Positions 1 to 14,865 of a stretch of 64,000 bases of DNA are shown in pieces (the first letter of the stretch is position 1; each line of letters begins with the position of its first letter). The position numbers were made by a program, and so were the translations under genes. The notes below the pieces were generated by a model. That model searched no databases, was not told the DNA's origin, and saw nothing but the letters and a program-made list of their open reading frames with translations. Source of the stretch: an uncultured bacterium (GTDB lineage Bacteria; Patescibacteriota; Patescibacteriia; UBA9570; XYC2-FULL-38-9); NCBI GenBank assembly GCA_937996685.1, contig CALKUP010000006.1, positions 64,001 through 128,000 of the forward strand, given 5' to 3'.

Positions 1-1889
1 GTGTATGTCACAGTGTAGGTTCCTGGCGCTGCGGTATCCACTGGATTTGTCGTTGAGACAGCAACGCTTGCATCACACGCGTCTGAGGCTGTTGCTCCTA
101 GATCAGTATATGTTTGCCCTTGCGTCACAGATACATTTCCAGCGCTCACTTGCGTAATCGTTGGCGCAGTCGTATCCACAACACTCACTGTTCGTGTATT
201 GGAGCCTTGGTTTCCATCATAGTCAAGCGTACTGAGATACAGAATTGGATAGCTCCCAATGACACTCGCATTCACTGTCCCGCTACTCAAACCTGCAATT
301 AAACCTGTTCGAAAATTATCCGTTGCTGTCGCTCCTGCGTCTGACCAACTGCCAATGCCACATTGCACTGTGTCTGTTCCACTGGTGATCGCGACAGTTG
401 GGATTGTTTGATCTGACTCAAATGCACCAATGTCACACAAACCATTTTGTGGGCGAGATAACCCACGTGCATCTGTCGTTAGCGGATTTCCAGCAATGTC
501 TGTGCAATCAACTTCTGGGACAATGTCACGCGTGTTACTTGTCCATAAACGAGCTGTCTGCACAGGCCCTCCATTATTTTCTAATGAGACTGTAAAAAAG
601 AGTGAATGTGATCCAGAGGTTGTGTTGTCATGTGTTTGCGTAAAAATACCAGTGCAGTCAGTTGTTGTTGCGAGATAATTATAATCAGCAGACGCGAGAC
701 CCGCACTCGCAGAACAATCATTCGCGGTTGAGCCTGTTGGCGTATCTGGATATTGATAATTTTCCGCAAAGAGCGACCCCTTCACAACCACGTCAGCACT
801 TCCGCCTGCAACAAATAATCCACCACCATTTCCCCCACCACTGCGATTATTATTAGCGTTATTTTGCAAAATTGTACTAAAGGAAATATCGAGATGTGCA
901 TCGCCATTATTCTCCACAAAAATAGCACCACCGTTGTCAGCAGCTGTGTTATCCATAAAGGTTGTATTCACAACAACAGTTGGTGCATCAATATATAATG
1001 CTCCGCCGCCTAAACCAAAACCACCCAAAGAAGCGTTGTTGTTCGAAAAGGTACTATCGCGAATCACCATCTGGCCAGCCGGAATGATTGTGCTTTCAGT
1101 GGTATAAATTGCTCCGCCGATTGTTGCTGAGTTATTTGTAAAAGAAGAGTCCTCAATCAAAATCTCATTCGATTGTATTGAAGCGATAATCGCTCCGCCA
1201 CCTCCACTTGCAGTGTTGTTTGAAAACGCTGATTGAGAAATGGTCAAATTACACAAATTCGCATTCATCGCACCACCGAACTCACCTGCAGTTGTTGTGT
1301 TTCCGGAAATCGTGGAATTTGTAATCACTAATGTATTGTTCTCACAACGAATACCACCGCCAAATGACGAGCCGGTCATTGCATTATTTGAAACCGTCAC
1401 ATGATCGAGTGTTGTTGTTCCAAGCGCTAGAATGCCTGCACCGTCACCAGTTGTTGTGCCATTTGTGAGCGTGAGTTGACTGATTACAGCCGTTGTTCCT
1501 GCCAGCGTCTCCATCACACGATCAATGTGGTTCGCATCAATAATTGTCTCGTCTACTCCAGCACCAGTGAGCGTTAACGTGCCGCTTGTGTCTGTAATAT
1601 CTAAATCGCCAGTCGCTGCAGCGTTTTCAGCTGTTCCGGAAACACTGAGAGTGTACGTTCCAGCTGGAACAATGATTGTGTCTGAACCACTACTTGCATT
1701 TGCAGATCGAATCGCTTCACGCAATGAACAATCCGTTGCACTGCCAGTGACGCAGGATGGCGAAACATCTGCTTCATCGTTTTCGATGGTCACCGTGTAA
1801 CTCGCCGCGTATGCGCTTGTTGGCATCAAGAAACAGAACAAAGCGAAAAAAGAAACAACTATTTTTTTGATTGTGTGTTGTGCATGCAT
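1..1889 (-). CDS. Large secreted beta-helix surface protein with PMP-type repeats and a DUF5011-like Ig domain. 5' partial: the C-terminus lies beyond the window start.
   Basis: Manual minus-strand translation from ATG at 1889 reads MHAQHTIKKIVVSFFALFCFLMPTSAYA (signal peptide). The open frame continues without a stop to position 3. Repeated FxxN and GGAI motifs (FSNNTASGGGGAIIAS, FTNNSATIGGAIYTT, GGALYID), a CDIGAFE motif, then a DUF5011-like TAPTIT...GATATD...TYTVTYT segment. This ORF is absent from the supplied track because it is open-ended. Confidence 0.72.
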   Translation of the reverse strand, partial: MHAQHTIKKIVVSFFALFCFLMPTSAYAASYTVTIENDEADVSPSCVTGSATDCSLREAIRSANASSGSDTIIVPAGTYTLSVSGTAENAAATGDLDITDTSGTLTLTGAGVDETIIDANHIDRVMETLAGTTAVISQLTLTNGTTTGDGAGILALGTTTLDHVTVSNNAMTGSSFGGGIRCENNTLVITNSTISGNTTTAGEFGGAMNANLCNLTISQSAFSNNTASGGGGAIIASIQSNEILIEDSSFTNNSATIGGAIYTTESTIIPAGQMVIRDSTFSNNNASLGGFGLGGGALYIDAPTVVVNTTFMDNTAADNGGAIFVENNGDAHLDISFSTILQNNANNNRSGGGNGGGLFVAGGSADVVVKGSLFAENYQYPDTPTGSTANDCSASAGLASADYNYLATTTDCTGIFTQTHDNTTSGSHSLFFTVSLENNGGPVQTARLWTSNTRDIVPEVDCTDIAGNPLTTDARGLSRPQNGLCDIGAFESDQTIPTVAITSGTDTVQCGIGSWSDAGATATDNFRTGLIAGLSSGTVNASVIGSYPILYLSTLDYDGNQGSNTRTVSVVDTTAPTITQVSAGNVSVTQGQTYTDLGATASDACDASVAVSTTNPVDTAAPGTYTVTY

Positions 1890-1951
1890 GAAGCAATGTT
1901 AACACGAGCGGAATTAATTCACCAAATACTATTTGAATCAAGTCACGCTCT

Positions 1952-2773
1952 TTACACCGTAATAAACGAACGCATCCCGACACTCCCCATTTCAATCTCC
2001 GTATTAAAATAGGACAACTGTTCATCTGGTTCAAGCAGCGCCATTGCCGCAACCATTGGCCGGTAATGATCATCTGTTGGAACTGCTAATTGCGTAATCG
2101 CTCCAAACTGCTGCGGGCGTGTAATCACATTCATATTTTGGTCAGTCATCGCATCTGTCAGGCGCGCATCAAATTCTTGCGCCCAATCGAACGGCTGTCC
2201 GTTTTCCCAATCAATCGCACCGAGGTTGTGAACAATATTTCCGCTCCCAATAAAAATCACGCCACGATTGCGCAAGCTTTTTAATTCCGCGAACATGGTG
2301 AGCAATTGCTCCAGCGACTGATTGATATCAAGACTTATTTGTAACATCGGAATGTCGCGCTCAGGCTTCATGCGCATCATCACAGACCACATCCCATGAT
2401 CAAAACCGCGCGTGCGATCGAGCTCGGCTTCATACGCGAGCAGCGCCTGTTGCAATTGCTGTGCGACAGCTGGATCTCCCGGCGCTTGATATTGCACCGC
2501 AAAAAGCTCCGGCGGAAAACCAAGAAAATCGTGGATCGTATCAGGCCGCTCAACAGATTGAATGAACGTTCCGCGCGACAACCAATGCGCGCTAATCACC
2601 ACAATCGCCTGCGCCTCAGGCAAGCTCGCTCCGATCCGCTCCCATTCAACCGCAAACGGATTGTCTGTAATCGCATTCATCGGATTGCCATGCCCAACAA
2701 ACAACACCGGCATGCGCGCAGACGGCGTGAGCGTGTGTGACAATTGACGCAACGAATCAACAGGATGTTTCAT
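1952..2773 (-). CDS. Class III extradiol ring-cleavage dioxygenase, YgiD/LigB family (4,5-DOPA dioxygenase-like)
   Basis: Protein ...MPVLFVGHGNPMN...ISAHW... matches the YgiD N-terminus. The track ORF 1952..2995 extends upstream; the likely start is ATG at 2773 (MKHPVD) or 2713 (MPVLFVGHGNP). Confidence 0.78.
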   Translation of the reverse strand: MKHPVDSLRQLSHTLTPSARMPVLFVGHGNPMNAITDNPFAVEWERIGASLPEAQAIVVISAHWLSRGTFIQSVERPDTIHDFLGFPPELFAVQYQAPGDPAVAQQLQQALLAYEAELDRTRGFDHGMWSVMMRMKPERDIPMLQISLDINQSLEQLLTMFAELKSLRNRGVIFIGSGNIVHNLGAIDWENGQPFDWAQEFDARLTDAMTDQNMNVITRPQQFGAITQLAVPTDDHYRPMVAAMALLEPDEQLSYFNTEIEMGSVGMRSFITV

Positions 2774-2819
2774 TCCTCTATCTAACCAAAGAACTGGACC
2801 GATAGCAAATTGCGGATCT

Positions 2820-2848
2820 TTGCAAAATATCAAATATCTGATTAGATA
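2820..2848 (+). promoter_or_regulatory. Sigma70-like promoter TTGCAA-17-TAGATA, about 7 nt upstream of the CYTH gene ATG (near-leaderless)
   Basis: TTGCAA at 2820-2825, 17-nt spacer, TAGATA at 2843-2848. The ATG is at 2856. Confidence 0.35.
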
Positions 2849-2855
2849 GTGGCAT

Positions 2856-3599
2856 ATGGAAAAACCACTCCGAAAACAACCCGACAAAAAATCGTCAACC
2901 GAAAAGCGCGAAGACACGCCGCAAGAACGAGAGCTCAAAATTGTTGTGCCCAGAGCCGCGATTGAACCCTTAATCGCAAGCGCTCCAGCTGCCACGATTG
3001 ATCAATGGTATTTTCCGAAAGACGTCGAACTCTTTCAACGCGTCGCGAGAGAATGTGCTTTAGATCTACCATCTGATGCTGATGTTTCGCAAGCTCGGAT
3101 TCGCAAACAAGTTGAGCCAAACGGCAAAGTGGTGTACACCGCAACATTCAAAGGACAAAAAGATCTTACAACCTTTTCTCGCAGTGAGTTTGAAGTGGTG
3201 ATTTCGCAAGAGACAGCGGAAAGACTGCTGCCACAAGCAACCAATGGTCATTTACAAAAACGCCGACATTTTATTGAAGGCATTGTCGTTATTGACGGAC
3301 AACCTGAAAAACAAAAAGCGGAAATTGATTTACTCCTTCAAGATGCAAAGGGCGATGCAAGTGATTACCCTATCGCCTTTTTTGAAATTGAATGTGATTC
3401 CGATGCCGCGATTGATGCAATTCGAAAAGGAAGGGTAACATTTTCAGAAGAAATCAATGCAGTGCTCCGTGCTGGCAAAGAAGCGTCTGATAACAAGTTG
3501 TTAAGCATGACAACGATCGCAAAAAAAGGTGTTGACAGAGACGGTGCAGCTGACTTGCTCAAAAAAATTACCCCCGAAAGCAAGAAAAAGAAAAAATAA
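2856..3599 (+). CDS. CYTH-domain protein (triphosphate tunnel metalloenzyme, class IV adenylate cyclase / triphosphatase-like)
   Basis: N-terminal ExExK motif (ERELKIVVP). Alternating acidic and basic beta-strand pattern typical of CYTH. Lys-rich C-terminal tail. Confidence 0.6.
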   Translation: MEKPLRKQPDKKSSTEKREDTPQERELKIVVPRAAIEPLIASAPAATIDQWYFPKDVELFQRVARECALDLPSDADVSQARIRKQVEPNGKVVYTATFKGQKDLTTFSRSEFEVVISQETAERLLPQATNGHLQKRRHFIEGIVVIDGQPEKQKAEIDLLLQDAKGDASDYPIAFFEIECDSDAAIDAIRKGRVTFSEEINAVLRAGKEASDNKLLSMTTIAKKGVDRDGAADLLKKITPESKKKKK

Positions 3600-3621
3600 A
3601 TACTGCGCGAGTATTATTTTG

Positions 3622-3650
3622 TTGCAGCTCAACAAGAGATGTCATATAAT
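3622..3650 (+). promoter_or_regulatory. Sigma70-like promoter TTGCAG-17-TATAAT for the FG-GAP gene
   Basis: TTGCAG at 3622-3627, 17-nt spacer, TATAAT at 3645-3650. GGAGA lies 10 nt before the ATG at 3682. Confidence 0.45.
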
Positions 3651-3681
3651 ACAGGCATCTTATTTGTAATATAAAAATTTT

Positions 3682-5566
3682 ATGGAGATAAAATATGGAG
3701 CGAGTTTTGCGCTCCTTGGCGCGTTTGCGTTCAATCTTATTGTTCCTCATCAAACCCTTGCTGATACAGTTTGGGATGCGACCAAAAAGAGTGCAGCGAC
3801 GTACACACTTTCTAGTCCATATGCTGGCCCAACAAACGTCAATTTTGTCGGCGATGTAAATGGCGATGGCTTCGATGACGTGGTTGTCACAAGCGCAAAA
3901 AGTGATGACTCAAATGCAACGATTTATAATTATCTTGTATACGGGTCAGCCAACAAAATTTCTGACGGCAAGCTCACAGCAAAAGCGAGTGCCATTTTCA
4001 CAAACTCTCGACCATTAACCGGCGTTTCTCGACCAGTCGGCGGCGACATCAATAATGATGGCTATTCTGACATCATGATCGGAGACGACGATAACGTATA
4101 TATCATCTTCGGAAAAAGCACAAAATTTACCGGCACACAAACAACAAAGACTGCTTCAAGTGCATCAATTTTAAATCCAAATTCATCAGAAGCAGAGGTT
4201 GTTGATGTAAATAACGACAACATTGAAGATTTGATTGTGCCAGGGCGCTTACAAAAGCACAGTGGTTCTTGGGTCTACATCTATCACCAACACCACAACA
4301 GCGCGAGCCGCTGCTCATGACATTGCACAAACAACTCTCTTAGGAGACATCAATAACGATGGTTTCATGGATTGGGGCAAAGTTGTTGAAAAAGGCAACA
4401 CAAACGCAATTGTTCATATCTATAAAGGCTCTGCAAGTTTTTACACAAACAACAGCGCGGTAAAAGCAGCCACAAAAATAACCATTACTCCAAGTACAGT
4501 CGGTGTTGCTGGAGAAAATGCTATCGGTGTATCCATTGCTCCCCTTTCAGATCTAAACAGAGATTCATATGACGACGCAGTCATTCGCGTCATTCATTAC
4601 AAGGTCCAAGGCACAAACGTGAAAGAACTCAAAACAACCAGTCACGTATTGTACAGCGACGGCACAATGCCAAAGACTCGTACGCTTGGATCATTAAAAC
4701 AATTAGATTCTGACTTTTTACGTGGCCTCTATAACGCAGGAGACGTGAATGGCGACTCTGTTTCAGACATTGCATCACGCAATATCCCAGGATCAAGTCT
4801 ACAAGCTGGATCAAGTGTCATGAATGTATTTACTTCAGGGGTAAACAAAACAAAAAATACAGCACACGACATTTTGCAACTCGGCTTTACTCCAGGAAAT
4901 CGAATTGGCGCGTATCAAACTGCGACAGACATTGCTTCAACAGCAAATAAAGCCGGTGACTTGAATAATGACGGATTTGCAGATCTACTATTTTCTGGTG
5001 ATCCTGAGCACAAAAATGCAACCTTTATTGTATATGGCCAGTCGAACTTTACTGGATCAGAAAGTCGCATTGGCTCAGCTGTTGGCTTAAAACGAGATCG
5101 CGTACAAATCACTCGAGAAGATGGCACGATTTTAAAGAAACAAGTATTTTCAACTGGAAAAACCGGACAAAGTCCATATGTTAACCCTTTGAAATATCGT
5201 AATTTTGCACTTGTTGTATCCAGCAACGGAAAACAAGTTGCAACAATTAAAAATACTGGCTCAATCAGTAAAGTAAAAAAATTGGCTTCAAAGGCACAAT
5301 CTTCTGTGCTAGAGATGGAATCATTTAACATCGGAAACACAGCAACTGAAGAAGCTGTTGTTGTCACCCGAACTGGTAATGATGTCACAACGTTTTATCT
5401 CACCATCATGAATGGCGCTATTAAAACAATTGACTCAAAAACTATTTCAACAACAGAAGCATTCGTTGGACTCGTTGTTGATCCAGCGCAAAAAACTGTT
5501 ACTCTGCAAAAAACAGATAGCTCAACAATTAAAGCATATACAATTGTTGGAACAACACTACAATAA
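3682..5566 (+). CDS. Secreted FG-GAP/VCBS-repeat (integrin-alpha-like beta-propeller) protein. The reading frame is interrupted by an apparent +1 frameshift near 4245-4255 (track ORFs 3682..4320 and 4235..5566). Either a pseudogene or a sequencing indel.
   Basis: Signal peptide MEIKYGASFALLGAFAFNLIVPHQTLA. Repeated GDVNGDGFDDVVV, GGDINNDGYSDIMIGD, GDINNDGFMDW, GDVNGDSVSDIAS and GDLNNDGFADLLFSGD motifs continue across the frame break. Both frames look protein-like only on their own side of about 4250. Confidence 0.6.
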
Positions 5567-5592
5567 GAACACTCTTCATTCTTATTCAAAAA

Positions 5593-5618
5593 GCGTCCCA
5601 TATCGGGGCGCTTTTGTT
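5593..5618. terminator. Bidirectional rho-independent terminator between convergent genes
   Basis: GCGTCCC-ATATC-GGGGCGC hairpin (7 bp including one G.U) flanked by CAAAAA upstream and TTTTGTT downstream. Confidence 0.6.
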
Positions 5619-5639
5619 ATAGGAAGATATTCTTGAGTA

Positions 5640-6170
5640 TTATTTTGTTGCAGCTTCAATCCGCTTCACCCGTTCAACGGCTTGTTTTCGGGTCACAAAG
5701 AGATAGACGAATAATGCAATCCCCACCGCCACTGCAACCGCAGAAATAATCATTCGGATATAATATGGCCGCCAATATTCCATTGTTGTGGCTTTTTGTA
5801 ACAACGGTTGCATGTCTTCGGGATTCGCAGAATCAATCACTAAGATGTCGACAGTATCACCAAGTGACAATTCGTTATATGTATTGCCATGCACGACTTG
5901 TGTGATGTTCCCTTCTGTCAGGGCGCCGTTTTGGGTCGTATATGAAACCGCGATATCATATTCCGTTCGCCAGCGATAATGCTCCGCGGAAAGATTGGTC
6001 ACACTCGCTTGTCGGACAGTTCCTTCTGCTTGATATCGCCCAATGAGTCGGTATTCACCAAACTGCAACAAAAACACCGGCCCGCCAATAACTAGGCACG
6101 CCGCGAATAGGCCCACCAAGATATTTCGACCGCGTTGTAATTGTGTGTCGCTGAGTGATTGTTTGTTCAT
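5640..6170 (-). CDS. DUF3592-like membrane protein (TM, beta-rich domain, TM)
   Basis: Two hydrophobic helices flank a beta-rich segment. Likely start is ATG at 6170 (MNKQSL); the track ORF extends to 6206 via an alternative start. Confidence 0.45.
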   Translation of the reverse strand: MNKQSLSDTQLQRGRNILVGLFAACLVIGGPVFLLQFGEYRLIGRYQAEGTVRQASVTNLSAEHYRWRTEYDIAVSYTTQNGALTEGNITQVVHGNTYNELSLGDTVDILVIDSANPEDMQPLLQKATTMEYWRPYYIRMIISAVAVAVGIALFVYLFVTRKQAVERVKRIEAATK

Positions 6171-6210
6171 GCAGAAAGTATGCCACAATTTCACACAACT
6201 AAACAAGGTG

Positions 6211-7467
6211 TTACTGATTGTTTGATTTTTGCAACACAGAACGGACGGTAAACAATAATGGGAGTTGCGTTAAAATCACACCGAGTAATCCGAAGCGCAA
6301 TGTTTCAGCTGGAAAATAGATATAGCCGAGTGCCAGCGCGATTAAAATAGTCACCCGACCCGCTCCGAGAAAAAATTCACGATCAAGCAAATAGACAAAA
6401 CGATTAACCCCACTCTTTTGGATCTCTTCATCGACGATATCAAAAAAGATTGTGAATAATGTTGAGTAGCGCAGTTCAATGGAAAAGGCACTAAACGCCA
6501 AATACACCAACAACGCCCAGGCAGTGTAACTAAATCCTAGGATCACTGCTCCAATAGTGGTGAGCGCAAACCAAAATGTGAGAATGCGGATATAATATCG
6601 CGGCTGAATGACTCGTCCTAATAAATACATTGCAGCCGTCGACAACACCGCTGTGACAGATTGGACTGAGCCGACGACATTCTCCTGCCCTATCAATAAC
6701 AAGATTAATAAGACCGGAAAATAAGTTGATGCACCTTCAACGAGTCCACTGAGAAATTCAACAAAGCGAACCTTCTGCCACCGCCTATTAGGGGCTTTCA
6801 AAAAAAGACCCTTCATTTTAATTGGGACGTGCACTTCTTCCGCGATCCATAATGTGATTATTCCTGAAACAACCAAACAGCAAGCTCCAATAATGCCGAA
6901 AAAACGATAGGCCACTCCAACATGAACAAACCCACTTCTCTCACCCAAAATAATACACCAACCGATCAACACAGGGAGCGCGGCACTTGTCATTGTTGAG
7001 AGCGCACTATCAAGACTCATGAATTGAAAACGGCGCGCTCCTTGGCTCGCGTGTGATGCGATGGTGTTTCGATTTGCCCAATACAAACCGCCAGCCAAGC
7101 CATTGAGTAAACTAAAAAACATAAAATACCCCACCGATGTCATCCCCTCTCCAAAAAATAAAAATGTTAAGGGCGCAAGAGCCTGAGCAATACAACCGAG
7201 GGTATATAAGGTGCGAATCCGAAAATAGTTGAGCAAAAATCCGTTGAGCGCAAAGGTGGCAATAATCCCAACAGGAAAAGCAACGTTGTATTCAATTAAT
7301 AATAACGGGTCACGCGTCTGCCGCCACACAAAGGTTTCTAAAAATACGAGCAACAATGGCGCCGCTGTGGAATACAACACAAACGACAATAACAAAACAC
7401 GCTGATCTTTTGTCAGCACTTGGAAATAAGACAACTCTTTCCGAAAAAATTGGATGATGTGATTCAT
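6211..7467 (-). CDS. MFS-type transporter (12 predicted TM helices)
   Basis: 418 aa, uniformly hydrophobic with a periodic helix pattern, mid-protein cytoplasmic loop with basic residues. Confidence 0.65.
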   Translation of the reverse strand: MNHIIQFFRKELSYFQVLTKDQRVLLLSFVLYSTAAPLLLVFLETFVWRQTRDPLLLIEYNVAFPVGIIATFALNGFLLNYFRIRTLYTLGCIAQALAPLTFLFFGEGMTSVGYFMFFSLLNGLAGGLYWANRNTIASHASQGARRFQFMSLDSALSTMTSAALPVLIGWCIILGERSGFVHVGVAYRFFGIIGACCLVVSGIITLWIAEEVHVPIKMKGLFLKAPNRRWQKVRFVEFLSGLVEGASTYFPVLLILLLIGQENVVGSVQSVTAVLSTAAMYLLGRVIQPRYYIRILTFWFALTTIGAVILGFSYTAWALLVYLAFSAFSIELRYSTLFTIFFDIVDEEIQKSGVNRFVYLLDREFFLGAGRVTILIALALGYIYFPAETLRFGLLGVILTQLPLLFTVRSVLQKSNNQ

Positions 7468-7507
7468 GCAAGCCTGCCTATTTTTTCACTAGATTATATA
7501 TTACTTT

Positions 7508-7933
7508 TTACCACTTCGCAGCAAATTCCACTGTCCATTCAATACCGAACTTGTCTCTGAACATACCGAAATATGTTCCCCATGGACTTCCTCCCATTGG
7601 CATTTCAACTGCGCCGCCAACGGACAATCCATTGAAGATTTTTTCAGCTTCTTCTTTGCTTTCTGCACGAACAGATATTTTGGATCTGTTTTCGTTTTCA
7701 TTCACTCGCCCCATCGCTTCCGGGATGTCGTTCGCGATTAACACGTTCGCGCCAATAGACAACGCAATGCGCATGATTTTATTCTCCTCTTTTTCTGGAA
7801 CTGGAAACTCAGCGCTTGATAAATCTTTGAAACGCACAAGCTCCACAAACTCTCCCCCAAATACTGATTTGTAAAATGTGAATGCTTCTTCGGCGTTTCC
7901 GTTAAAGTTGATCCATGGATTGATTGTTGTCAT
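7508..7933 (-). CDS. VOC/glyoxalase-family protein (PhnB/YjdN-like)
   Basis: MTTINPWINFNGNAEEAFTFYKSVFGGEF matches the PhnB-like N-terminus. Confidence 0.75.
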   Translation of the reverse strand: MTTINPWINFNGNAEEAFTFYKSVFGGEFVELVRFKDLSSAEFPVPEKEENKIMRIALSIGANVLIANDIPEAMGRVNENENRSKISVRAESKEEAEKIFNGLSVGGAVEMPMGGSPWGTYFGMFRDKFGIEWTVEFAAKW

Positions 7934-8070
7934 ATGTACTGCTGTTTATCTTTCGTTATGTTGTTATGCGTATATGGTAACAGGTTATTTGGGTGTGTGG
8001 CAACGATAACTGTTTGAATTGACTTATTTTAAGATGTTGATGGAAGAGAAAAAATTTTGATTTTAGTTTC

Positions 8071-8964
8071 TTAATCAATTTCACCATTTTCTCTCAAAAC
8101 GCGAATCGCATTAAATCTTCTACCCTCATCCACTTTATCCTTAACAATCTCGCGGAGTGCAATAATGGTTTGATTATATGCCAATTCCAACCCCTTATTT
8201 ACAACTTGCATCCATTGATCAAAATCAAATTGCTCAGCTTCAAGCAGTTTTTTGATTATGTCACCAAAATCACGCGGACTAAAACACGAATCCAGAAAAT
8301 GTGTTTCCAAAAATTGCTCGATGTCATCACCAGTACTGATTTTCTTAAGCCATGCAAGGGCAACCTTCTGATTCATGGGCAGATACGAAATTTGCGTTTT
8401 TTCCAACCAGTCGAAATATTCTACAATTTTAGCCTCAATATCTTGCTCAATATAGCCTTTGGCGTGTGCAATTTTGTCATTACGATATGTAATAATCGAC
8501 TTCTTAATACTACGTGCATCAATTTTTGTTAGACCTACAATCTTCAATAAATCGATAATTTCAGTTTCGCCCAAAAAAGCGATGGCATGCGGTGATTCAG
8601 GCGCTAAAATACCCTCTGCCCCATTACGGGGGTTTTTAATAGTTAATGCCAACTCATATTTATCTTTCTCCTCTCTGTAAATTCGCAAAATTTTATACTG
8701 TATGGCGAGCATAAAAAGGAGATGAAATGGCATTACCGCAAAAGGATTCGGTTCAGCTTCGTCTTTATTAAGAGAAGAAAATGCTTCCCATAGGTGATTT
8801 ATATAATCATTTTCCGTAGTGTCTCGACGAATGGGTAGATAGTCAAAAATCTCAGCTCCGATTACTGAATACGAGACATCCTTTCTATTATCCTCTATAG
8901 CAGACTCTCGTATTTGTTCAAGATAATCTTGATGTTTGTAAAAATATTCATCATCTTCTGACAT
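8071..8964 (-). CDS. Hypothetical HEPN-motif protein, possibly an Abi2 (AbiD/AbiF)-like abortive-infection effector, last gene of the type I R-M cluster
   Basis: 297 aa. Rx4-6H motif RNDKIAH in a helical C-terminal half. Position immediately downstream of hsdMS with a 6-nt gap. Low GC like the rest of the island. Confidence 0.45.
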   Translation of the reverse strand: MSEDDEYFYKHQDYLEQIRESAIEDNRKDVSYSVIGAEIFDYLPIRRDTTENDYINHLWEAFSSLNKDEAEPNPFAVMPFHLLFMLAIQYKILRIYREEKDKYELALTIKNPRNGAEGILAPESPHAIAFLGETEIIDLLKIVGLTKIDARSIKKSIITYRNDKIAHAKGYIEQDIEAKIVEYFDWLEKTQISYLPMNQKVALAWLKKISTGDDIEQFLETHFLDSCFSPRDFGDIIKKLLEAEQFDFDQWMQVVNKGLELAYNQTIIALREIVKDKVDEGRRFNAIRVLRENGEID

Positions 8965-8969
8965 AGTAG

Positions 8970-11390
8970 TTACATCCAGAGTTTGGCAATCACGTCCTTG
9001 ATCTTTTGATCGTAAATGACAATGAGTTTTTTGGCAGATTCGACTAGCATACGCTCAACCTTAATCTTCTCTACAATCTGCCCTTGTACTTCGAGGGATG
9101 GGAGAGGTATTTTAAAATTTTTCACACTACCCGCAGCAAGATTGGGCTGTGCAACACCATTTTTAGATTCAAGGATCATATCTGCAAAAAATGACGTCCC
9201 AAAATACACCGCTAGAAAATCTACCATTACTTTTTCTCTGGGACGTACTATGACCAATGATGAAGCGATAGCTCCTTCAGAAAAGTTCTCAACTTTGGCA
9301 TATTTACCTAAAGACCCTCGCAAACATAATAATATATCATCTTTCTGAACCTTACCGCCTCCAAGCAGATCAAATCTGACTCGTGATATGAAATCCATAT
9401 TCTTCATGTCAATTCCATCATCTGTTAAATGGCCCGCATTAATAAATGGAATTCCATTGTCTACCCGGTCAGATTTTGAAGGATAATTTACGCCTCTATC
9501 GCCATTTTCAAAATCACAAATCTCCCCCAACTTCACTTTCTCCCACTCAGGATCGATGTCAATTTTGGGTTTCCAATTTTGGACGATTTGCTTGGCACCG
9601 GCGATGATGCCTGTGTAACCATTCAGCTCCGCTACAATTTGCTCTTGAATTTCGAGAGACGGGAGAGGGATTTGAAATGACTGCAACATTCCAAGCTTGA
9701 TATAAGGCATTGTATTTCCAAGTTTCTGCAACTGCATATTCTCTTTCAGAGAATTATTCAAAACTTGAAAAAGATACTTTACATTTACATTTTTGAAATT
9801 ACTCAAAACATAAGTTCGTTGATATGCGTCAAATTTTCCTTTGTAATATTTCACTGCACCAACATCACCGTTTCCAGCAATAAGTAACGCTTCTGTATCA
9901 AATGAAAATACATCAATAAATGTGTTTTCTTTAGCACAAGTAAAGAATGGGTACTCGCCGTTAGGATTTCCTTCATTTACATCTTTTCTGCCTGTTGTAA
10001 TTTCACAAAGTTCTTTTAACTCCACCATTTGCCATTTGACCTTACTGTAATCAGTAACTACACGATATCTGTCACCTGAAAGGTTATAATCACCGTTTTC
10101 GGCAATTTTTGATTTTTCTACATACATTGCAAGCTTGCTTTCTACTTTTTCACCGGCGTTCCATTTGTTCAAAATATCTAGTGCAGCTGGCAAATCATTT
10201 TTGTTAATTGGCCTCTTGGTTGCACCGAGATCAAGACCATCTTGTTCAATTTTTACGAACAAAATTTCTTGATTTGTTTTTGTTAACTCATTATTAAAAA
10301 GCAAAATACTTGTTTTTACTCCGCTATACGGAGCAAAAACACCTGATGGTAAACTTACAACAGCATATAGACCGTCCTCAATAAGATTTTTTCGAAGTTG
10401 CTTATGAGCCGTACCCGATTGAAAAATAATCCCTTCCGGCACGATAATTCCTGCGCGACCATTTGGGCGCAAGTGATTCATGATGTAATCAACGAATAAC
10501 ACCTCCGAACGGGTAGACTCAATGCTAAATTTTTTGTGGGTTGCTACACCACCTTTCGGTGACATAAACGGCGGATTCGCAAGAATGACATCGAACTTAT
10601 CACCCCATCGATCTTCTTCGCTCAATGAATTATATTGAACAATTTTAGGGTTCTTAAACTGATGTAAATACATATTCACTTGAGCAATACGCACCATGCT
10701 CGGATCAACATCGTATCCCTCAAAATTCTCCATTATTTTACGACGCTGCGATGGTGTTAATGGGGATTCTTTTTTTTTGGGGTCATTTATGCCATCATGC
10801 TGTTCCAAAATATGCTTGTATGAACTCACCAAAAAACCACCTGTTCCACATGCCGGGTCCAGTATCTTATCATCTTTTGTCGGATTAATAACATCCACAA
10901 TAAAATCGATGATATGACGCGGCGTGCGAAACTGCCCAGCATCACCTTGACTCGACATAATCGAAAGCAAATACTCATATGCATTACCAAGCTCTTCTGG
11001 ATGAGAATAATCAAAGAAATCAATCTCTTTCAAGAATAATCCAAGCGTTTCTGGTGAACGATATGGTAAAAATGCTGATTTAAAAATTCCACGGAATAAT
11101 TCTGGGAGTTGTTTCGCCTCGGAAAATTTAAGTAGAGCTTCGGCATATAAATTCATTCGCTCTTGATTCCCAACGCGCGAATCCATGAGCCGCGACCATG
11201 CATATTGCTCAAGCTCACCAATAAAAAAAGAAGGTTCATCTCCTTGTTTAATTGCAGCCTGATCCATATCATCCATGAATTTGTAAATCAAAGCATTGGT
11301 GATTTGCTCGATTTGTGAAGTCGGGTTTGGAACAACACCTACAAGCACTTGCCTTGCAGCGTCTATATGTCTTTTAGTTTCTGAATTCAT
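8970..11390 (-). CDS. hsdMS: Type I restriction-modification methyltransferase fused to the specificity subunit (HsdM-HsdS single polypeptide, two target-recognition domains)
   Basis: N6-adenine methyltransferase motifs DPACGTGGFL (motif I) and NPPF (motif IV). C-terminal 330 aa contain two TRDs, each ending in the conserved HsdS helix LPSLEIQEQIVAELN / LPSLEVQGQIVEKI. Confidence 0.8.
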   Translation of the reverse strand: MNSETKRHIDAARQVLVGVVPNPTSQIEQITNALIYKFMDDMDQAAIKQGDEPSFFIGELEQYAWSRLMDSRVGNQERMNLYAEALLKFSEAKQLPELFRGIFKSAFLPYRSPETLGLFLKEIDFFDYSHPEELGNAYEYLLSIMSSQGDAGQFRTPRHIIDFIVDVINPTKDDKILDPACGTGGFLVSSYKHILEQHDGINDPKKKESPLTPSQRRKIMENFEGYDVDPSMVRIAQVNMYLHQFKNPKIVQYNSLSEEDRWGDKFDVILANPPFMSPKGGVATHKKFSIESTRSEVLFVDYIMNHLRPNGRAGIIVPEGIIFQSGTAHKQLRKNLIEDGLYAVVSLPSGVFAPYSGVKTSILLFNNELTKTNQEILFVKIEQDGLDLGATKRPINKNDLPAALDILNKWNAGEKVESKLAMYVEKSKIAENGDYNLSGDRYRVVTDYSKVKWQMVELKELCEITTGRKDVNEGNPNGEYPFFTCAKENTFIDVFSFDTEALLIAGNGDVGAVKYYKGKFDAYQRTYVLSNFKNVNVKYLFQVLNNSLKENMQLQKLGNTMPYIKLGMLQSFQIPLPSLEIQEQIVAELNGYTGIIAGAKQIVQNWKPKIDIDPEWEKVKLGEICDFENGDRGVNYPSKSDRVDNGIPFINAGHLTDDGIDMKNMDFISRVRFDLLGGGKVQKDDILLCLRGSLGKYAKVENFSEGAIASSLVIVRPREKVMVDFLAVYFGTSFFADMILESKNGVAQPNLAAGSVKNFKIPLPSLEVQGQIVEKIKVERMLVESAKKLIVIYDQKIKDVIAKLWM

Positions 11391-11392
11391 AT

Positions 11393-13993
11393 TTACAAGT
11401 TTGTTATATGATACGCGTAATCATGGATATATTGAGGAACTATTGCCTTATAACCATTCAGCATCTGATATTCCTCAAAATCAAACGTGGACTCTGTGTT
11501 AAATCGTGCTGTTTGTTTGGTTGAGATAATTTCTCGCACTTTTTCATCTGTTGCGTATGCCTTAAAAAACATCTTGACTGGCGCATAATGCTTTTGATCA
11601 ACTGGGTTTACTTCCATGAATTTCTCCCATTCGGACTCTAGTAAGTCTTCTTTATTTTCAAATGATTCTTTTTGCCCAAAAGCGACTTCTAAAAATTCCT
11701 TTACGGAAATTCGACGATCGACATCAAATATTTTACGTATTTTATCGAGATTCAAAAAATGTTTTGGCTTATCAAAAATTTCTTTCTTCGCAAAATCTTC
11801 TGCTTCTTGTAAATCACCATTCTCCCACAATGATTTTAGGACTTCATTACCCACAACATCTTCTTCAACAGCTTGTTTAAAGCCTTCTCGGTCAATGCGC
11901 ATTCCTTCTACGCCAATAGCTATTGCAGCAACAGAAATGACTTTATCATCCATCGCTAAATCAACAGGTCCTTTAAATACTGCATTGCCATTTTCGTCTA
12001 CAAATTCTCCTTGCTGTCCTTCTGAATCAGCATTTTTTTCAGTTGCGGTCACTTTTTTTATTTGTGGCAGTTTGATTTTCTCATCATACGGAAATTCATG
12101 TTCAAAATATTCACAACTGGCAAAGAAATCAAAGAACTTAAATTCGTTCTTATCGACATGAATTTGTTCATTTGTCGTATAATCATGATAATCGAATGAA
12201 TACTTTCTAGTACCGCGGCCTTTCATCTGCACAAAATCAGACGGACTAAACACAGGTCGCATAAGACCAATATTCAACAAATCTGGGCAGTCATACCCTG
12301 TTGTCATCATGCCAACTGTAACCACTACTCGTGTCTTTCCTGAATCATATCCTTCAAGAAATTTCACTGGCCCACCAAGTCTGTTATTCGCAAAATTTAT
12401 TGTCATCTGCTGTGCCTTCTGCACTTGAGATGTCACCTGCACAGCAAAATCAGATTCATTATATTGATCTGGCCATTTTTCATAAGCAAGTCTATTGAGA
12501 ATATTTGCTACACGCGCAGCATGACTTTGTGAAACACAAAAGACAATGGATTTTCCAAAAAGTGGGAGGCCAAATTTTTGACCAATTGGATCCAGAAGAC
12601 CGTTATCAATAAATGCCTTACACATCGCAATATTTGTCTCTTCATTGAAAAATTTCTTTTCATAGTGTCGTTCATCAAACACCTCATTCATTTCTCCGGC
12701 TTCTGTATTTGTAGATACACCGTATCCTTTTTCAGATAGAAGTTCAGTGGTAATTTCTGTACGAGCATCTATGCGCGTTGGCTGAATAAGATGCCCATCT
12801 TTTGAGCCTGTATTTAAATCATATGAAAAAGTAGGAACACCTGATTCACAACCGAAAGTTTTATACGTATCTAAAAGCAAGCGCCGTTCATGCTCCCGCT
12901 GATTATCTAATGTAACGGTATTAACATTCTTCAAATAATTTTTTGGCGTAGCAGTTAAACCAAGTTTATAACCAACAAAATATTCAAACACAGCGCGACT
13001 ATTACCACCTATAGAACGATGAGCTTCATCTGAAATCACTAGTTCAAAATCTGTAGGTGAAAAATCCTTTTTGTATCGGTCGCCTGCGAGAAATGTTTGC
13101 ACTGTAGAAACGACAATGCTCGCATTTTGCCAAGAATCCTTTTTGTTCTTATAAATAACACTTGGAAAATCACGTCCCAAATACTGTGTAAATGCCTTAT
13201 GCGCCTGGTCTTCTAACTCTAATCTATCTACTAAAAATAAAATACGCTGTGCGTTACCAGACTGTAAAAACAATTTTATAGCAGCCGCGGAAATCAGCGT
13301 CTTGCCTGTACCTGTTGCCATCTCAAACAGAAACCGATTATTACCCAACTGAGCAGACTGCTGCAAAGAATTAATCGCTTGCATCTGATACGAACGCAAC
13401 TGTTTAAGGCTATTGTCTTTCAAGAACGCGCTGCGAGTATATTCATTTTGAAATAAAGGATCTTTTTCGAAACCCGGCATCTGAGATTCAATTATATAAT
13501 TCGCTCCTACTTCAATTTGCGCTAACCCTGCGGGGTCTGGTGTATATTTTTCGTACTGTGAAATTGAATCTTGCGTAGGAAAACGCGAAATTGTTTCCGG
13601 ATTACCGTTTTGAGTATCCCAAAAATAATGAATGTTACCATTCGACAAAATCACAAAACGCGCATTTATATTACGCGCATAATTACGGGCCTGTTCCTTT
13701 GCAGAAAGCGGGTCGATTGATTCTTTTTTTGCCTCAACAACAACCAGCGCTCGCCCGTTCTTATCTAGCAATAAAAAATCGATAAATCCTTTTGAAGCAT
13801 TTTCAAAATCATCACCTAACTCGCTAATACTCACTCCTGGCTCCAGCTGAATATTTGCCTTACCATTTTTATCATCAAAAAATCGCCACCCAGATTCTTG
13901 TAGTAGGTTATTTATTTTTATTCTTGCTTGGGCTTCTTTTTTATTTTTCATAACATTATTTTTCTTCATCATCCATTCGTCTTCGTCGATCAT
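11393..13993 (-). CDS. hsdR: Type I restriction enzyme R subunit (HsdR)
   Basis: N-terminal PD-(D/E)xK nuclease (FIDFLLLDKNGRALVVVEAKK). SF2 helicase Walker A (ATGTGKT) and DEAH box (SDEAHRS). The true start is probably 13972 or 13951 (MKNKKEAQARIKINNLLQESGW); the longest ORF overlaps the upstream gene by 38 nt. Confidence 0.85.
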   Translation of the reverse strand: MIDEDEWMMKKNNVMKNKKEAQARIKINNLLQESGWRFFDDKNGKANIQLEPGVSISELGDDFENASKGFIDFLLLDKNGRALVVVEAKKESIDPLSAKEQARNYARNINARFVILSNGNIHYFWDTQNGNPETISRFPTQDSISQYEKYTPDPAGLAQIEVGANYIIESQMPGFEKDPLFQNEYTRSAFLKDNSLKQLRSYQMQAINSLQQSAQLGNNRFLFEMATGTGKTLISAAAIKLFLQSGNAQRILFLVDRLELEDQAHKAFTQYLGRDFPSVIYKNKKDSWQNASIVVSTVQTFLAGDRYKKDFSPTDFELVISDEAHRSIGGNSRAVFEYFVGYKLGLTATPKNYLKNVNTVTLDNQREHERRLLLDTYKTFGCESGVPTFSYDLNTGSKDGHLIQPTRIDARTEITTELLSEKGYGVSTNTEAGEMNEVFDERHYEKKFFNEETNIAMCKAFIDNGLLDPIGQKFGLPLFGKSIVFCVSQSHAARVANILNRLAYEKWPDQYNESDFAVQVTSQVQKAQQMTINFANNRLGGPVKFLEGYDSGKTRVVVTVGMMTTGYDCPDLLNIGLMRPVFSPSDFVQMKGRGTRKYSFDYHDYTTNEQIHVDKNEFKFFDFFASCEYFEHEFPYDEKIKLPQIKKVTATEKNADSEGQQGEFVDENGNAVFKGPVDLAMDDKVISVAAIAIGVEGMRIDREGFKQAVEEDVVGNEVLKSLWENGDLQEAEDFAKKEIFDKPKHFLNLDKIRKIFDVDRRISVKEFLEVAFGQKESFENKEDLLESEWEKFMEVNPVDQKHYAPVKMFFKAYATDEKVREIISTKQTARFNTESTFDFEEYQMLNGYKAIVPQYIHDYAYHITNL

Positions 13994-14552
13994 CTAAAAT
14001 CTCATCCTCAAATTCAAAATAAAGCGTGCCTTGCGGTCGTCTCTGATACCCCAATAACTCCATTGCAAAAGTTGAAAGGCTATTTACCTTATCACCAATT
14101 TTGATTTTATCATTTTCAATAACCTCAGCAACAATGTTTGCATCTCTCGTAAATGTCAGCTTTGAGCCAACAGGGATGCCATATTGATCAAAATGAAACC
14201 GTGAACGTCGCTCTTTCACTTCATCAACCTCTTTCTCTTGCTCTTTCGTTAAACCACTGTCAATTCTTTCTTCTTGAATTTGAACCTTTTTTAACGCCAA
14301 GGCAGCATATTCAGGATTCATCTTAAAAAATTCACGATTATCTCGCGCTCGTCGATCAGCAAAAATAGAATGCAACCACTTTTCTTCTTTCTCGGCATTT
14401 TCAACTACTGCAGCATAATACACTTCAAAAGGAAGCGGGGTGCCAGTTCGATCCAGTTGCTTCATCCGCTCTGTGACATCGCCATGAGTAAAACCAATTT
14501 TAATGTACTCTGGCATTGATTCATTTGTTAATATGTAGACAATCTGATTCAT
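13956..14552 (-). CDS. GIY-YIG nuclease-family protein (T5orf172-like N-domain plus DUF4357-like C-domain)
   Basis: VYILTNESMPEYIKIGFT ... R...N ... EFF motif pattern of the T5orf172/GIY-YIG fold. First gene of the R-M operon. Confidence 0.65.
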   Translation of the reverse strand: MNQIVYILTNESMPEYIKIGFTHGDVTERMKQLDRTGTPLPFEVYYAAVVENAEKEEKWLHSIFADRRARDNREFFKMNPEYAALALKKVQIQEERIDSGLTKEQEKEVDEVKERRSRFHFDQYGIPVGSKLTFTRDANIVAEVIENDKIKIGDKVNSLSTFAMELLGYQRRPQGTLYFEFEDEILDDRRRRMDDEEK

Positions 14553-14755
14553 ACGCCAACTTCAGCAACCTATTGATAAAAACTCAAAACTTCGCAAAAT
14601 TCGAGTTAATTTGAATAATATATACATATAATATAAAGCAATTAGCGAAAAAATGCCATAGCACTGAATACGTAGAATAAACCGAAATTTAGGGGGTGTA
14701 CCCCTTCAGGGCACGGGCAGGAATCCTCGATTCCCGCTCTCCTTCTAGAGATAAC

Positions 14756-14789
14756 AAAAAAGCGGTCCCAGAAGGACCACTCTTTTGTT
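14756..14789. terminator. Bidirectional rho-independent terminator downstream of tRNA-Trp
   Basis: GGTCC-CAGAA-GGACC hairpin flanked by an A6 tract and TTTTGTT. Confidence 0.6.
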
Positions 14790-14794
14790 ATATG

Positions 14795-14865
14795 CAGGGG
14801 GTGCAGGAATCGAACCCGCCCAAATGGTTTTGGAGACCAGTGTACTACCGATATACGAACCCCCT
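14795..14865 (-). tRNA. tRNA-Trp (anticodon CCA)
   Basis: Manual fold: acceptor AGGGGGT/ACCCCCT, D-arm GTAT/GTAC, anticodon loop CTCCAAA, T-arm GCGGG-TTCGATT-CCTGC, discriminator G. The 3' CCA is not encoded. Confidence 0.8.

Follow-up and report, generated by a model that had tools for sequence, protein, structure and literature searches.

Do the extra nuclease-like genes that lie beside a restriction-modification (R-M) operon form one defence system with it, or are they independent neighbours? The question is raised by a cassette of four genes in a 64-kb stretch of DNA from an uncultured bacterium (contig CALKUP010000006.1), which we call the window. In the order of transcription the genes are named G (a T5orf172/GIY-YIG protein), R (a restriction subunit), MS (a methylase fused to a specificity subunit) and X (an all-alpha protein); the loci and contigs of relatives compared with the window carry L-numbers. 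A sequence-only reading of the window had described four tightly packed, co-directional genes on the minus strand, and all the open reading frames (ORFs) were found where it had placed them. The small gaps that it reported were also found, with 2 nt between R and MS, 5 nt between MS and X, and 4 nt between G and R when R starts at 13951 (with the longest ORF of R, G and R overlap by 38 nt). None of the findings which that reading had named beforehand as evidence against the island or the gene identities turned up. We propose that R-MS-X combines a natural Type IMS restriction enzyme with a latent RNase, X, that the enzyme restrains and that serves as its back-up, with G as an independent accessory, and we give this proposal about an even chance of being right.

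Methylase and specificity subunits in a single chain

MS had been read as a single-chain HsdM-HsdS protein, and the profile searches bore this out. In Pfam, N6_Mtase (E 9e-56) and two Methylase_S stretches (E 1.6e-39) were matched within one ORF, and in PADLOC the same protein matched MTase_I (E 2.3e-102) plus Specificity_I. The S part contains two target recognition domains (TRDs), and its conserved helices, both LPSLE(I/V)Q.QIV, are encoded by the copies of a 56-nt direct repeat, D1 (79% identity, spacing 561 nt). The S part therefore has the canonical HsdS layout of TRDs alternating with conserved regions (TRD1-CR1-TRD2-CR2).

R, which had been called HsdR, kept that identity: it matched HSDR_N_2 (E 1.1e-9) and ResIII (E 2.5e-39) in Pfam, with Helicase_C below the cut-off (E 0.0014), and REase_I in PADLOC (E 7.4e-54). 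Its best NCBIfam model, EcoAI/FtnUII, gave 212.7 bits, below the cut-off of 550. Judged by these matches, R is type I-like without reaching the type IB (EcoAI/EcoEI) equivalog. The longest ORF of R (11393-13993) would encode 866 aa; because the homologues are 842-863 aa long and align from residue 20 onward, R probably starts at ATG 13951, which gives a protein of 852 aa.

The cassette therefore carries the sequence features of a type I system, namely an HsdR with PD-(D/E)xK and superfamily 2 (SF2) motifs, a gamma-class N6-adenine methylase and an HsdS with two TRDs. The separate M and S polypeptides of type I enzymes (M2S1, R2M2S1) were not found: M and S share one 806-aa ORF, and the cassette has no separate hsdM. 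The name 'Type IMS' has been proposed for an M fused to one or two TRDs together with a separate R (PMC3510504), and this is the composition of the cassette, in which HsdM is fused to a two-TRD HsdS and HsdR is separate. A MADS system was also considered and was rejected, as mad2 and mad5 (NCBIfam) were matched far below their cut-offs.

The Type IMS enzymes described so far in the literature that we searched were engineered. When EcoKI hsdM was fused to hsdS by removal of a frameshift, the product was functional with HsdR in vivo (PMC3510504, Roberts et al. 2012), and in vitro the fusion required extra free HsdM (PMC3510504). A second engineered set, CC398-1 MSfus, behaved similarly (PMC6158711, Bower et al. 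2018). The cassette shares with these constructs the in-frame fusion of HsdM to a two-TRD HsdS and the separate HsdR. Unlike these laboratory constructs, the R-MS-X family is natural and widespread, has no separate hsdM and has a fixed third gene, X; the R of the window, for its part, is EcoAI-like but below the family cut-off. Our literature search, which did not extend to REBASE, found no description of natural Type IMS members. In the literature searched, the M-S fusion is a laboratory construct and a hypothetical evolutionary intermediate; the present family would make it a common natural design, and raises the question of how one methylase domain serves two half-sites.

A constant third gene

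X had 198 relatives at E <1e-3 in a word-indexed search, all of them unnamed, and an exhaustive search gave 355 clusters at 50% identity. The close relatives carry Patescibacteria labels. Context look-ups returned R (~850 aa), MS (~810 aa), an optional gene and then X in five of five cases. We then used loci from a metagenome scan, which added 50, and located G, R, M, S and X by tblastn in 59 X-bearing loci. M followed by S was found upstream of X on the same strand in all 37 loci with >2.7 kb of sequence upstream of X, and R was present in all 16 loci with >6.5 kb upstream. M and S were in one ORF in 41 of 42 related loci. Across the X loci, the identity to the window was 55-88% for M, 46-81% for R, 30-71% for X and 25-60% for S, the low values of S being expected for variable TRDs.

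Only one X was found without MS, and it is a decayed copy: a 106-aa remnant (L035, 811-1131) that is 71% identical, ends before the R..H motif and adjoins a methylase fragment with no R-MS. The hosts of the triad have flank GC contents from 0.31 to 0.64, which indicates that the triad travels widely as a unit. Among the plasmids of PLSDB, pPZ02 of Paracoccus zhejiangensis was the only one with an MS homologue covering 80% of the query (others ~73%); it carries R, MS and an X-like gene, which are annotated as a DEAD/DEAH helicase, an N-6 DNA methylase and a hypothetical protein. No relatives of X were found in phage records or in IMG/VR viral contigs. Taken together, X is the fixed last gene and constant partner of the R-MS family.

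The spacing between MS and X is bimodal, either ~14 nt or 0.7-1.1 kb, and the longer gaps that we inspected hold an extra gene (DUF2806, DUF3800-like or T5orf172-like). Between R and MS, the inserted gene has Schlafen/AlbA_2 and HATPase_c_4 domains. Insertions into the triad were seen at L004 (5223-6662 and 9241-10008), L008 (9147-9998) and L018 (4784-5323), and they occupy two insertion points. The only locus with M and S in two overlapping ORFs was L023 (6492-8986; ORFs 6492-8327 and 8300-8986), where the two genes may be truly split, or a frameshift or an error of assembly may be the cause.

This linkage bears directly on whether the four genes are independent neighbours in a hotspot, that is, an ordinary type I R-MS, a stand-alone HEPN toxin or Abi protein (X) and a stand-alone nuclease (G). 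Hotspot cargo is indeed swapped, since AbiL-like genes occupy the slot in L011 (see below); G is found with many unrelated R-M systems in varied positions and is modelled by PADLOC as a single-gene candidate (PDC-S57), and in plasmids of E. coli the third position is held by Ppl. For X, however, a linkage of 37/37 to MS and 16/16 to R over such a range of host GC, with no intact X apart from MS, goes against independence, and we consider this explanation of the four genes unlikely.

The Ppl-bearing plasmids carry the closest annotated relative of the R-MS backbone. On IncF plasmids of E. coli and Klebsiella, an R (849 aa) is followed by an M fused to one TRD (677 aa) and by Ppl/TrlF (951 aa). 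In the example that we examined (L064, E. coli plasmid NZ_AP022031.1, 50064-57612), the operon lies between finO and repA, and it is present on hundreds of IncF plasmids. Its M is 42.6% identical to that of the window, and its third gene matches PADLOC Ppl at E 7.6e-137. The two loci share the R and M families, the fusion of M to a TRD and a defence-type third gene in the same operon position; they differ in that the plasmid operon has a single TRD and that its third gene is Ppl, a PHP/ABC-type ATPase that is itself a PADLOC defence gene, rather than X. The plasmid operon seems to be a type I system with fused MS that has gone unrecognised and is paired with Ppl. It is annotated just as a helicase, an N-6 DNA methylase and a TrlF family ATPase, and our literature search found nothing on the mechanism of TrlF.

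An HEPN family outside current models

In PADLOC, G, R and MS were all matched (PDC-S57, REase_I, and MTase_I plus Specificity_I, respectively) and X was not. As a single sequence, X had no match in scans of Pfam, PADLOC, NCBIfam or PHROG. The assignment comes from its family. In an alignment of 74 members, R161 and H167 are invariant and N162 is nearly so; in an alignment of 96 members, which reaches down to ~20% identity, invariance is confined to the columns of Y54, R161 and H167. The family consensus is RNxxAH, and the RNDKIAH of the window is one residue longer. When the 96 members were searched against Pfam, HEPN_RiboL-PSP was matched by 24 (best E 1.1e-5), HEPN_MAE_28990 by 8, HEPN_Swt1 by 2 and HEPN_Apea by 1, and each non-HEPN family was matched by a single member. 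For the members shown individually, the matches fall on the C-terminal part of the HEPN models.

The AlphaFold2 (AF2) model of X is all-alpha and confident (pLDDT 88.8, pTM 0.83). A Foldseek search of X against the Protein Data Bank (PDB) gave a best E value of 0.5, and profile searches with 74 and 96 members against PDB sequences returned chance matches (E >= 0.19). The core of the family is ~205 residues; a long form, to which the X of the window belongs, adds a C-terminal helical extension, and an N-terminal helix of 35 residues is present in the X of the window and missing from most relatives. At the level of the family, the Pfam matches and the invariant columns place X in the HEPN superfamily, in a family outside the current models, of which HEPN_RiboL-PSP, MAE_28990 and Swt1 are the nearest. 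Our literature search found essentially no literature on RiboL-PSP.

The sequence-only reading had called X HEPN/Abi2-like. The HEPN half of that description held, with family-level matches and an invariant R and H, and the Abi_2 half did not: Abi_2 was absent from the single-sequence tables and from the 25 families most matched by the 74 and 96 members. We therefore rejected Abi_2, HEPN models being nearest instead. X defines a new, well-delimited and unnamed HEPN family of 355 clusters with an unusually strict partnership.

Restriction with a proposed latent RNase as back-up

At least 16 HEPN clades lie in conserved R-M neighbourhoods and have been proposed to be second-line RNases (PMC3710099, Anantharaman et al. 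2013). PrrC-EcoprrI is the worked example of this link, and the PrrC model has been proposed as a general one (PMC3710099). In that model, the RNase is kept silent by the R-M complex as long as no phage blocks restriction. X shows the general pattern of an HEPN gene beside an R-M system, and it is like PrrC-EcoprrI and RloC in that a type I R-M operon has a gene for an HEPN-type nuclease closely linked to it. X differs from the described clades in that it matches no current Pfam HEPN model convincingly and that its partner is a fused-MS type I variant. It differs from PrrC and RloC in belonging to another HEPN clade, nearest to RiboL-PSP and MAE_28990, and in having no ABC-type ATPase N-domain in its 297 all-alpha residues; PrrC is also encoded between hsdS and hsdR, and X after the MS gene.

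In our proposal, R would act as a type I-style nuclease and ATP-dependent translocase, and R and MS together would methylate the bipartite sites of the host and cut unmodified incoming DNA. X would be a latent RNase held in check by the R-MS complex. A phage that disables or overloads restriction may then release X as an abortive-infection back-up, as for PrrC with EcoprrI, and G would be co-transcribed with R-MS-X from the head of the operon. The layering of restriction and abortive infection that the sequence-only reading had suggested is plausible.

Several points weigh against a restrained RNase. The members of the triad are known here as genes, and X is without the ABC-ATPase domain that serves PrrC and RloC as a sensor. 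The strict linkage fits X as a structural or regulatory subunit equally well as it fits a suicide RNase. Ppl in third place in the IncF operon indicates that the third slot can hold independent defence genes or alternative effectors. The two-TRD MS chain provides one methylase per specificity unit for two half-sites, and the engineered EcoKI fusion required free HsdM in vitro. Finally, gene spacing is what speaks for a single operon, since the scans for promoters (30 consensus matches found, 23.6 +/- 4.2 expected) and for terminators (10 found, 5.4 +/- 2.7 expected) did no better than shuffled sequences and were uninformative.

These points lead to the alternative that X is an integral, non-toxic subunit whose HEPN fold serves assembly or regulation rather than suicide. 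Such a subunit might fill the missing second HsdM site, control restriction alleviation or couple to R. The strict and ancestral linkage to R-MS in a fixed last position, with X never separated from MS, would be expected of it, as would the stoichiometry of one M to two TRDs in MS, given that the engineered fusion required additional HsdM; moreover, no antitoxin-like gene adjoins X. On the other hand, the only invariant residues of X are Y54 and the R and H of catalytic HEPN type, an indication that the chemistry has been retained. The related single-TRD MS system of E. coli plasmids does without X, and extra genes often lie between MS and X, which is unusual for tightly co-assembled subunits. 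On balance, a non-toxic subunit seems improbable to us.

A further possibility is that R-MS-X is a distinct and widespread three-component system in which the HEPN protein is an obligatory part of the enzyme rather than an added toxin, and G a universal, ultra-conserved accessory across type I, II, IIG and IIL systems. X might then complete the asymmetric complex of one methylase and two TRDs, or couple RNA cleavage to DNA recognition, and G would be a nuclease or controller acting on a conserved cellular or DNA target. We give this three-component arrangement little probability.

A restriction module that controls a linked toxin is also known from Ronin, in which HsdMS restrains the toxin RonA and senses anti-restriction proteins (bioRxiv 10.1101/2023.04.06.535777, Silas et al. 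2023). The proposed restraint of X is similar in that a type I methylase/specificity module would be coupled to a linked effector. Ronin differs in having no hsdR, separate M and S, and a 61-aa small membrane protein as its effector, whereas here R is intact and the candidate effector is a soluble HEPN protein. We therefore rejected Ronin as an identification of the cassette, which has an hsdR and lacks a small membrane toxin.

The HEPN/R-M pattern and the PrrC model are known; what is new is the natural fused-MS system and its unnamed HEPN partner family, and neither breaks a paradigm. X provides a test case for the long-standing and largely theoretical idea that R-M-linked HEPN RNases are guarded by the restriction complex.

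A promiscuous companion at the operon head

The sequence-only reading had seen R-MS bracketed by two extra candidates for a nuclease or an RNase. X proved to be the constant partner of R-MS; G is instead promiscuous across R-M types. The reading of G as a T5orf172-type GIY-YIG protein was upheld by Pfam (T5orf172 E 1.1e-15, MUG113 E 4.6e-14), and G matched the PADLOC candidate PDC-S57 (PDLC05041) over its full length (residues 2-195, E 1.9e-61). Y6, G20, R29, E74, N79 and E81 are invariant in 35 homologues and Y16 is nearly so; these residues would have the catalytic roles of GIY-YIG nucleases. For G, AF2 gave a poor model (pLDDT 65.2, pTM 0.44).

The best 120 clusters of G homologues are all 81-93% identical to G, and their labels span Caldatribacteriota, Pacebacteria, Levybacteria and Woesearchaeota. 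In two comparisons of G genes, amino acid identity was 82-88%, yet 43-54% of the codons for identical residues differed. Synonymous sites are thus near saturation at high amino acid identity, which argues that the distribution of G does not reflect a recent spread. Nucleotide homology ends at the ends of the coding sequence, and no target-site signature was seen.

When the contexts of homologues 82-93% identical to G were sampled, seven of seven were R-M operons of differing types. They included a type IC operon (hsdM-S-AAA_13-hsdR), an MmeI-like enzyme with a helicase, a 1356-aa ResIII+Eco57I fusion, a Dam-like methylase with DUF6996/6997 and an N6_N4 methylase, and an EcoRI_methylase with GmrSD_N/HNH and an SMC-like ATPase; in L078, G comes at the end, behind hsdR-M-S. 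By contrast, G-like genes were found by tblastn in just three other X loci (L018, L046 and L047), at other positions. G is thus a promiscuous companion of many R-M types, independent of this particular R-MS. The sequence-only reading had named T5orf172/DUF4357 genes as frequent neighbours of hsdR: the contexts agree with the T5orf172 part, and DUF4357 was not detected in G, for which Pfam reported T5orf172 and MUG113 alone at E up to 0.1.

PADLOC treats PDC-S57 as a single-gene candidate. G matches its model from end to end, but the steady placement of G homologues in R-M operons does not suggest a stand-alone system. Our literature search found no publications that mention PDC-S57. An identity above 80% across distant lineages, beside unrelated R-M systems, marks G as an overlooked R-M accessory, and suggests a conserved accessory function that has been catalogued as a single-gene candidate. 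G is probably a nuclease-like accessory at the head of the operon, which would add a specificity-independent nuclease or control function at the DNA level.

Instead of a defence nuclease, G could also be a regulator or a selfish rider of R-M operons: either a domesticated endonuclease that, as a DNA-binding controller, sets the timing of restriction relative to methylation, or a homing-type element. Its place at the operon head fits a regulator, as does its extreme conservation whatever the specificity of the R-M partner, with synonymous sites near saturation. In three contexts G directly follows an XRE-type gene of 68-103 aa that resembles a C protein, and there is a precedent in a T5orf172 endonuclease domesticated as a repressor (PMC8096241). 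Against regulation alone, the residues expected for GIY-YIG catalysis (Y6, Y16, G20, R29, E74/E81 and N79) are invariant or nearly so, and in L078 G comes last, after hsdS; the end of nucleotide homology at the coding sequence ends and the lack of a target-site signature argue against recent homing. We regard the regulator or rider as rather doubtful.

In three unrelated R-M operons (loci among L068-L071, L077 and L080-L081), 4 nt separate the XRE-type helix-turn-helix (HTH) gene from the G homologue that follows it. This arrangement suggests a leader cassette of a controller protein plus G; the window has no such HTH gene.

An acquired cassette in a variable slot

The sequence-only reading had put the island at about 37% GC. 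Its GC content is 0.374, compared with 0.445 elsewhere in the window, and is the minimum among all 6.7-kb windows within the 64 kb; 177 non-overlapping comparison windows had a mean of 0.444 (sd 0.027) and a minimum of 0.399. For comparison of the locus, species-representative genomes were scanned with the flanking epimerase, and three relatives were found. One is labelled Candidatus Kerfeldbacteria, and the other two carry labels of metagenome-assembled genomes (MAGs) that are mutually inconsistent.

Two close relatives, L010 and L011, lack the four-gene block at the tRNA-Trp locus. In L011, the epimerase is 86% identical, and tRNA-Trp and the downstream core are collinear with the window at ~71% nucleotide identity. 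Between VOC and tRNA-Trp, L011 carries 2.7 kb of cargo unlike that of the window: in the same slot (565-3042) lie genes for a 426-aa AbiLi-like ATPase (PADLOC E 3.2e-51) and for a 192-aa protein that matches AbiLii weakly, together with a 161-aa ORF. The AbiL-like pair in the identical slot indicates that the locus is a variable defence hotspot. In L010, window 3607-14690 is absent, and the tRNA-Trp region is joined straight to the homologue of window 2817-3606. Since L010 also lacks the genes of window 3607-8013, the variable region beside tRNA-Trp extends over ~11 kb and includes non-defence cargo. The genes missing from L010 at this locus comprise an FG-GAP repeat protein gene (4235-5566), a gene for a 188-aa membrane protein, an MFS transporter gene (6211-7467) and VOC.

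Alignments of the junctions with these relatives, a comparison that the sequence-only reading had also envisaged, place the borders at ~8013/8014 and ~14690/14691. The block shows two features of tRNA-linked genomic islands, an unusual base composition and its absence from the locus in relatives. Two others, an integrase and flanking repeats derived from the tRNA 3' end, were not found: no integrase ORF lies within 8014-14690, and the repeat search gave no direct repeat from tRNA-Trp that brackets the island. As the sequence-only reading had held, the segment 8014-14690 is an acquired defence cassette (coordinates are collected in Table 1). It was gained by horizontal transfer and occupies a variable slot immediately downstream of tRNA-Trp, in a bacterium that probably belongs to the Patescibacteria.

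Table 1. Features of the defence cassette and its flanks, in window coordinates
Feature	Position	Strand	Basis or remark
VOC/glyoxalase-fold gene, left flank, outside the cassette	7508..7933	-	Glyoxalase E 9.9e-10
Low-GC defence cassette, ~6.7 kb, acquired; variable slot between VOC gene and tRNA-Trp	8014..14690		Lowest GC; relatives with other or no cargo
X, 297-aa all-alpha protein, constant third gene of the R-MS-X triad	8071..8964	-	Unnamed HEPN-superfamily family
Codons for R161-N-D-K-I-A-H167 of X (HEPN Rx4-6H)	8464..8484	-	R161 and H167 invariant
MS, single-chain HsdM-HsdS, 806 aa	8970..11390	-	N6_Mtase and two Methylase_S stretches in one ORF
TRD2 of MS, aa 615-790	9021-9548	-	Methylase_S
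C-terminal conserved helix of the S part, LPSLEVQGQIVEKI	9061..9116	-	Direct repeat D1 of 9622-9677
TRD1 of MS, aa 451-594	9609-10040	-	Methylase_S
Central conserved helix of the S part, between TRD1 and TRD2, LPSLEIQEQIVAEL	9622..9677	-	Repeat D1
Methylase part of MS, ~aa 1-450	10041-11390	-	Motifs DPACGTGG, NPPF
R, HsdR-like restriction/translocase subunit	11393..13951 (ORF to 13993)	-	HMM matches; PD-(D/E)xK (D..EAK), SF2 GTGKT, DEAH
G, 198-aa GIY-YIG/T5orf172 protein with C-terminal beta-rich domain	13956..14552	-	Pfam and PADLOC PDC-S57
AT-rich leader of the cassette with its presumed promoter	14553..14690	-	Window-specific, no counterpart in L010 or L011; promoter presumed
Conserved block, ~60 nt, right border of the island	14693..14750		Resembles the tRNA-Trp 3' end
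Terminator-like hairpin after tRNA-Trp	14751-14791		Inverted repeat I16
tRNA-Trp (CCA)	14794..14865	-	ARAGORN; Rfam 51.9 bits

The tRNA-Trp border and the VOC flank

An Rfam scan of the window returned three tRNAs and nothing else. Just past the terminator of tRNA-Trp lies a block of ~60 nt, GGGGGTGTACCCC...GGCAGGAATCCTCGATTCC, which resembles the 3' end of the tRNA with an insertion of ~19 nt. The block is conserved in the window, in L011 (about 3248-3400) and in L010 (about 2649-2700), and thus also in relatives without the island. Its local alignment with the tRNA scored 29, against 18.3 +/- 3.5 for shuffled sequences, of which 3 of 500 reached 29. L011 has an additional clear partial copy of the tRNA 3' end, GATTCCTGCACCCCCCTGC. 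The block and the extra copy may be old remnants of attachment (att) sites; alternatively, the block could itself be a small structured element. Together they point to a site with a history of tRNA-targeted integration, the present cassette being without recognisable mobility genes.

On the left flank, the sequence-only reading had taken VOC for a core gene of ~46% GC. The measured GC content is 0.434, and its core status is not clear: window 7520-8008, which covers VOC and the spacer upstream of it, has 95.5% nucleotide identity to L011 1-489, compared with ~71% for the core on the far side of tRNA-Trp. A VOC homologue also lies in the unrelated contig L006 (11795-12232), just <1 kb downstream of an R-MS-X triad. 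With this homologue and the high identity to L011, VOC looks recently exchanged or cassette-linked rather than core.

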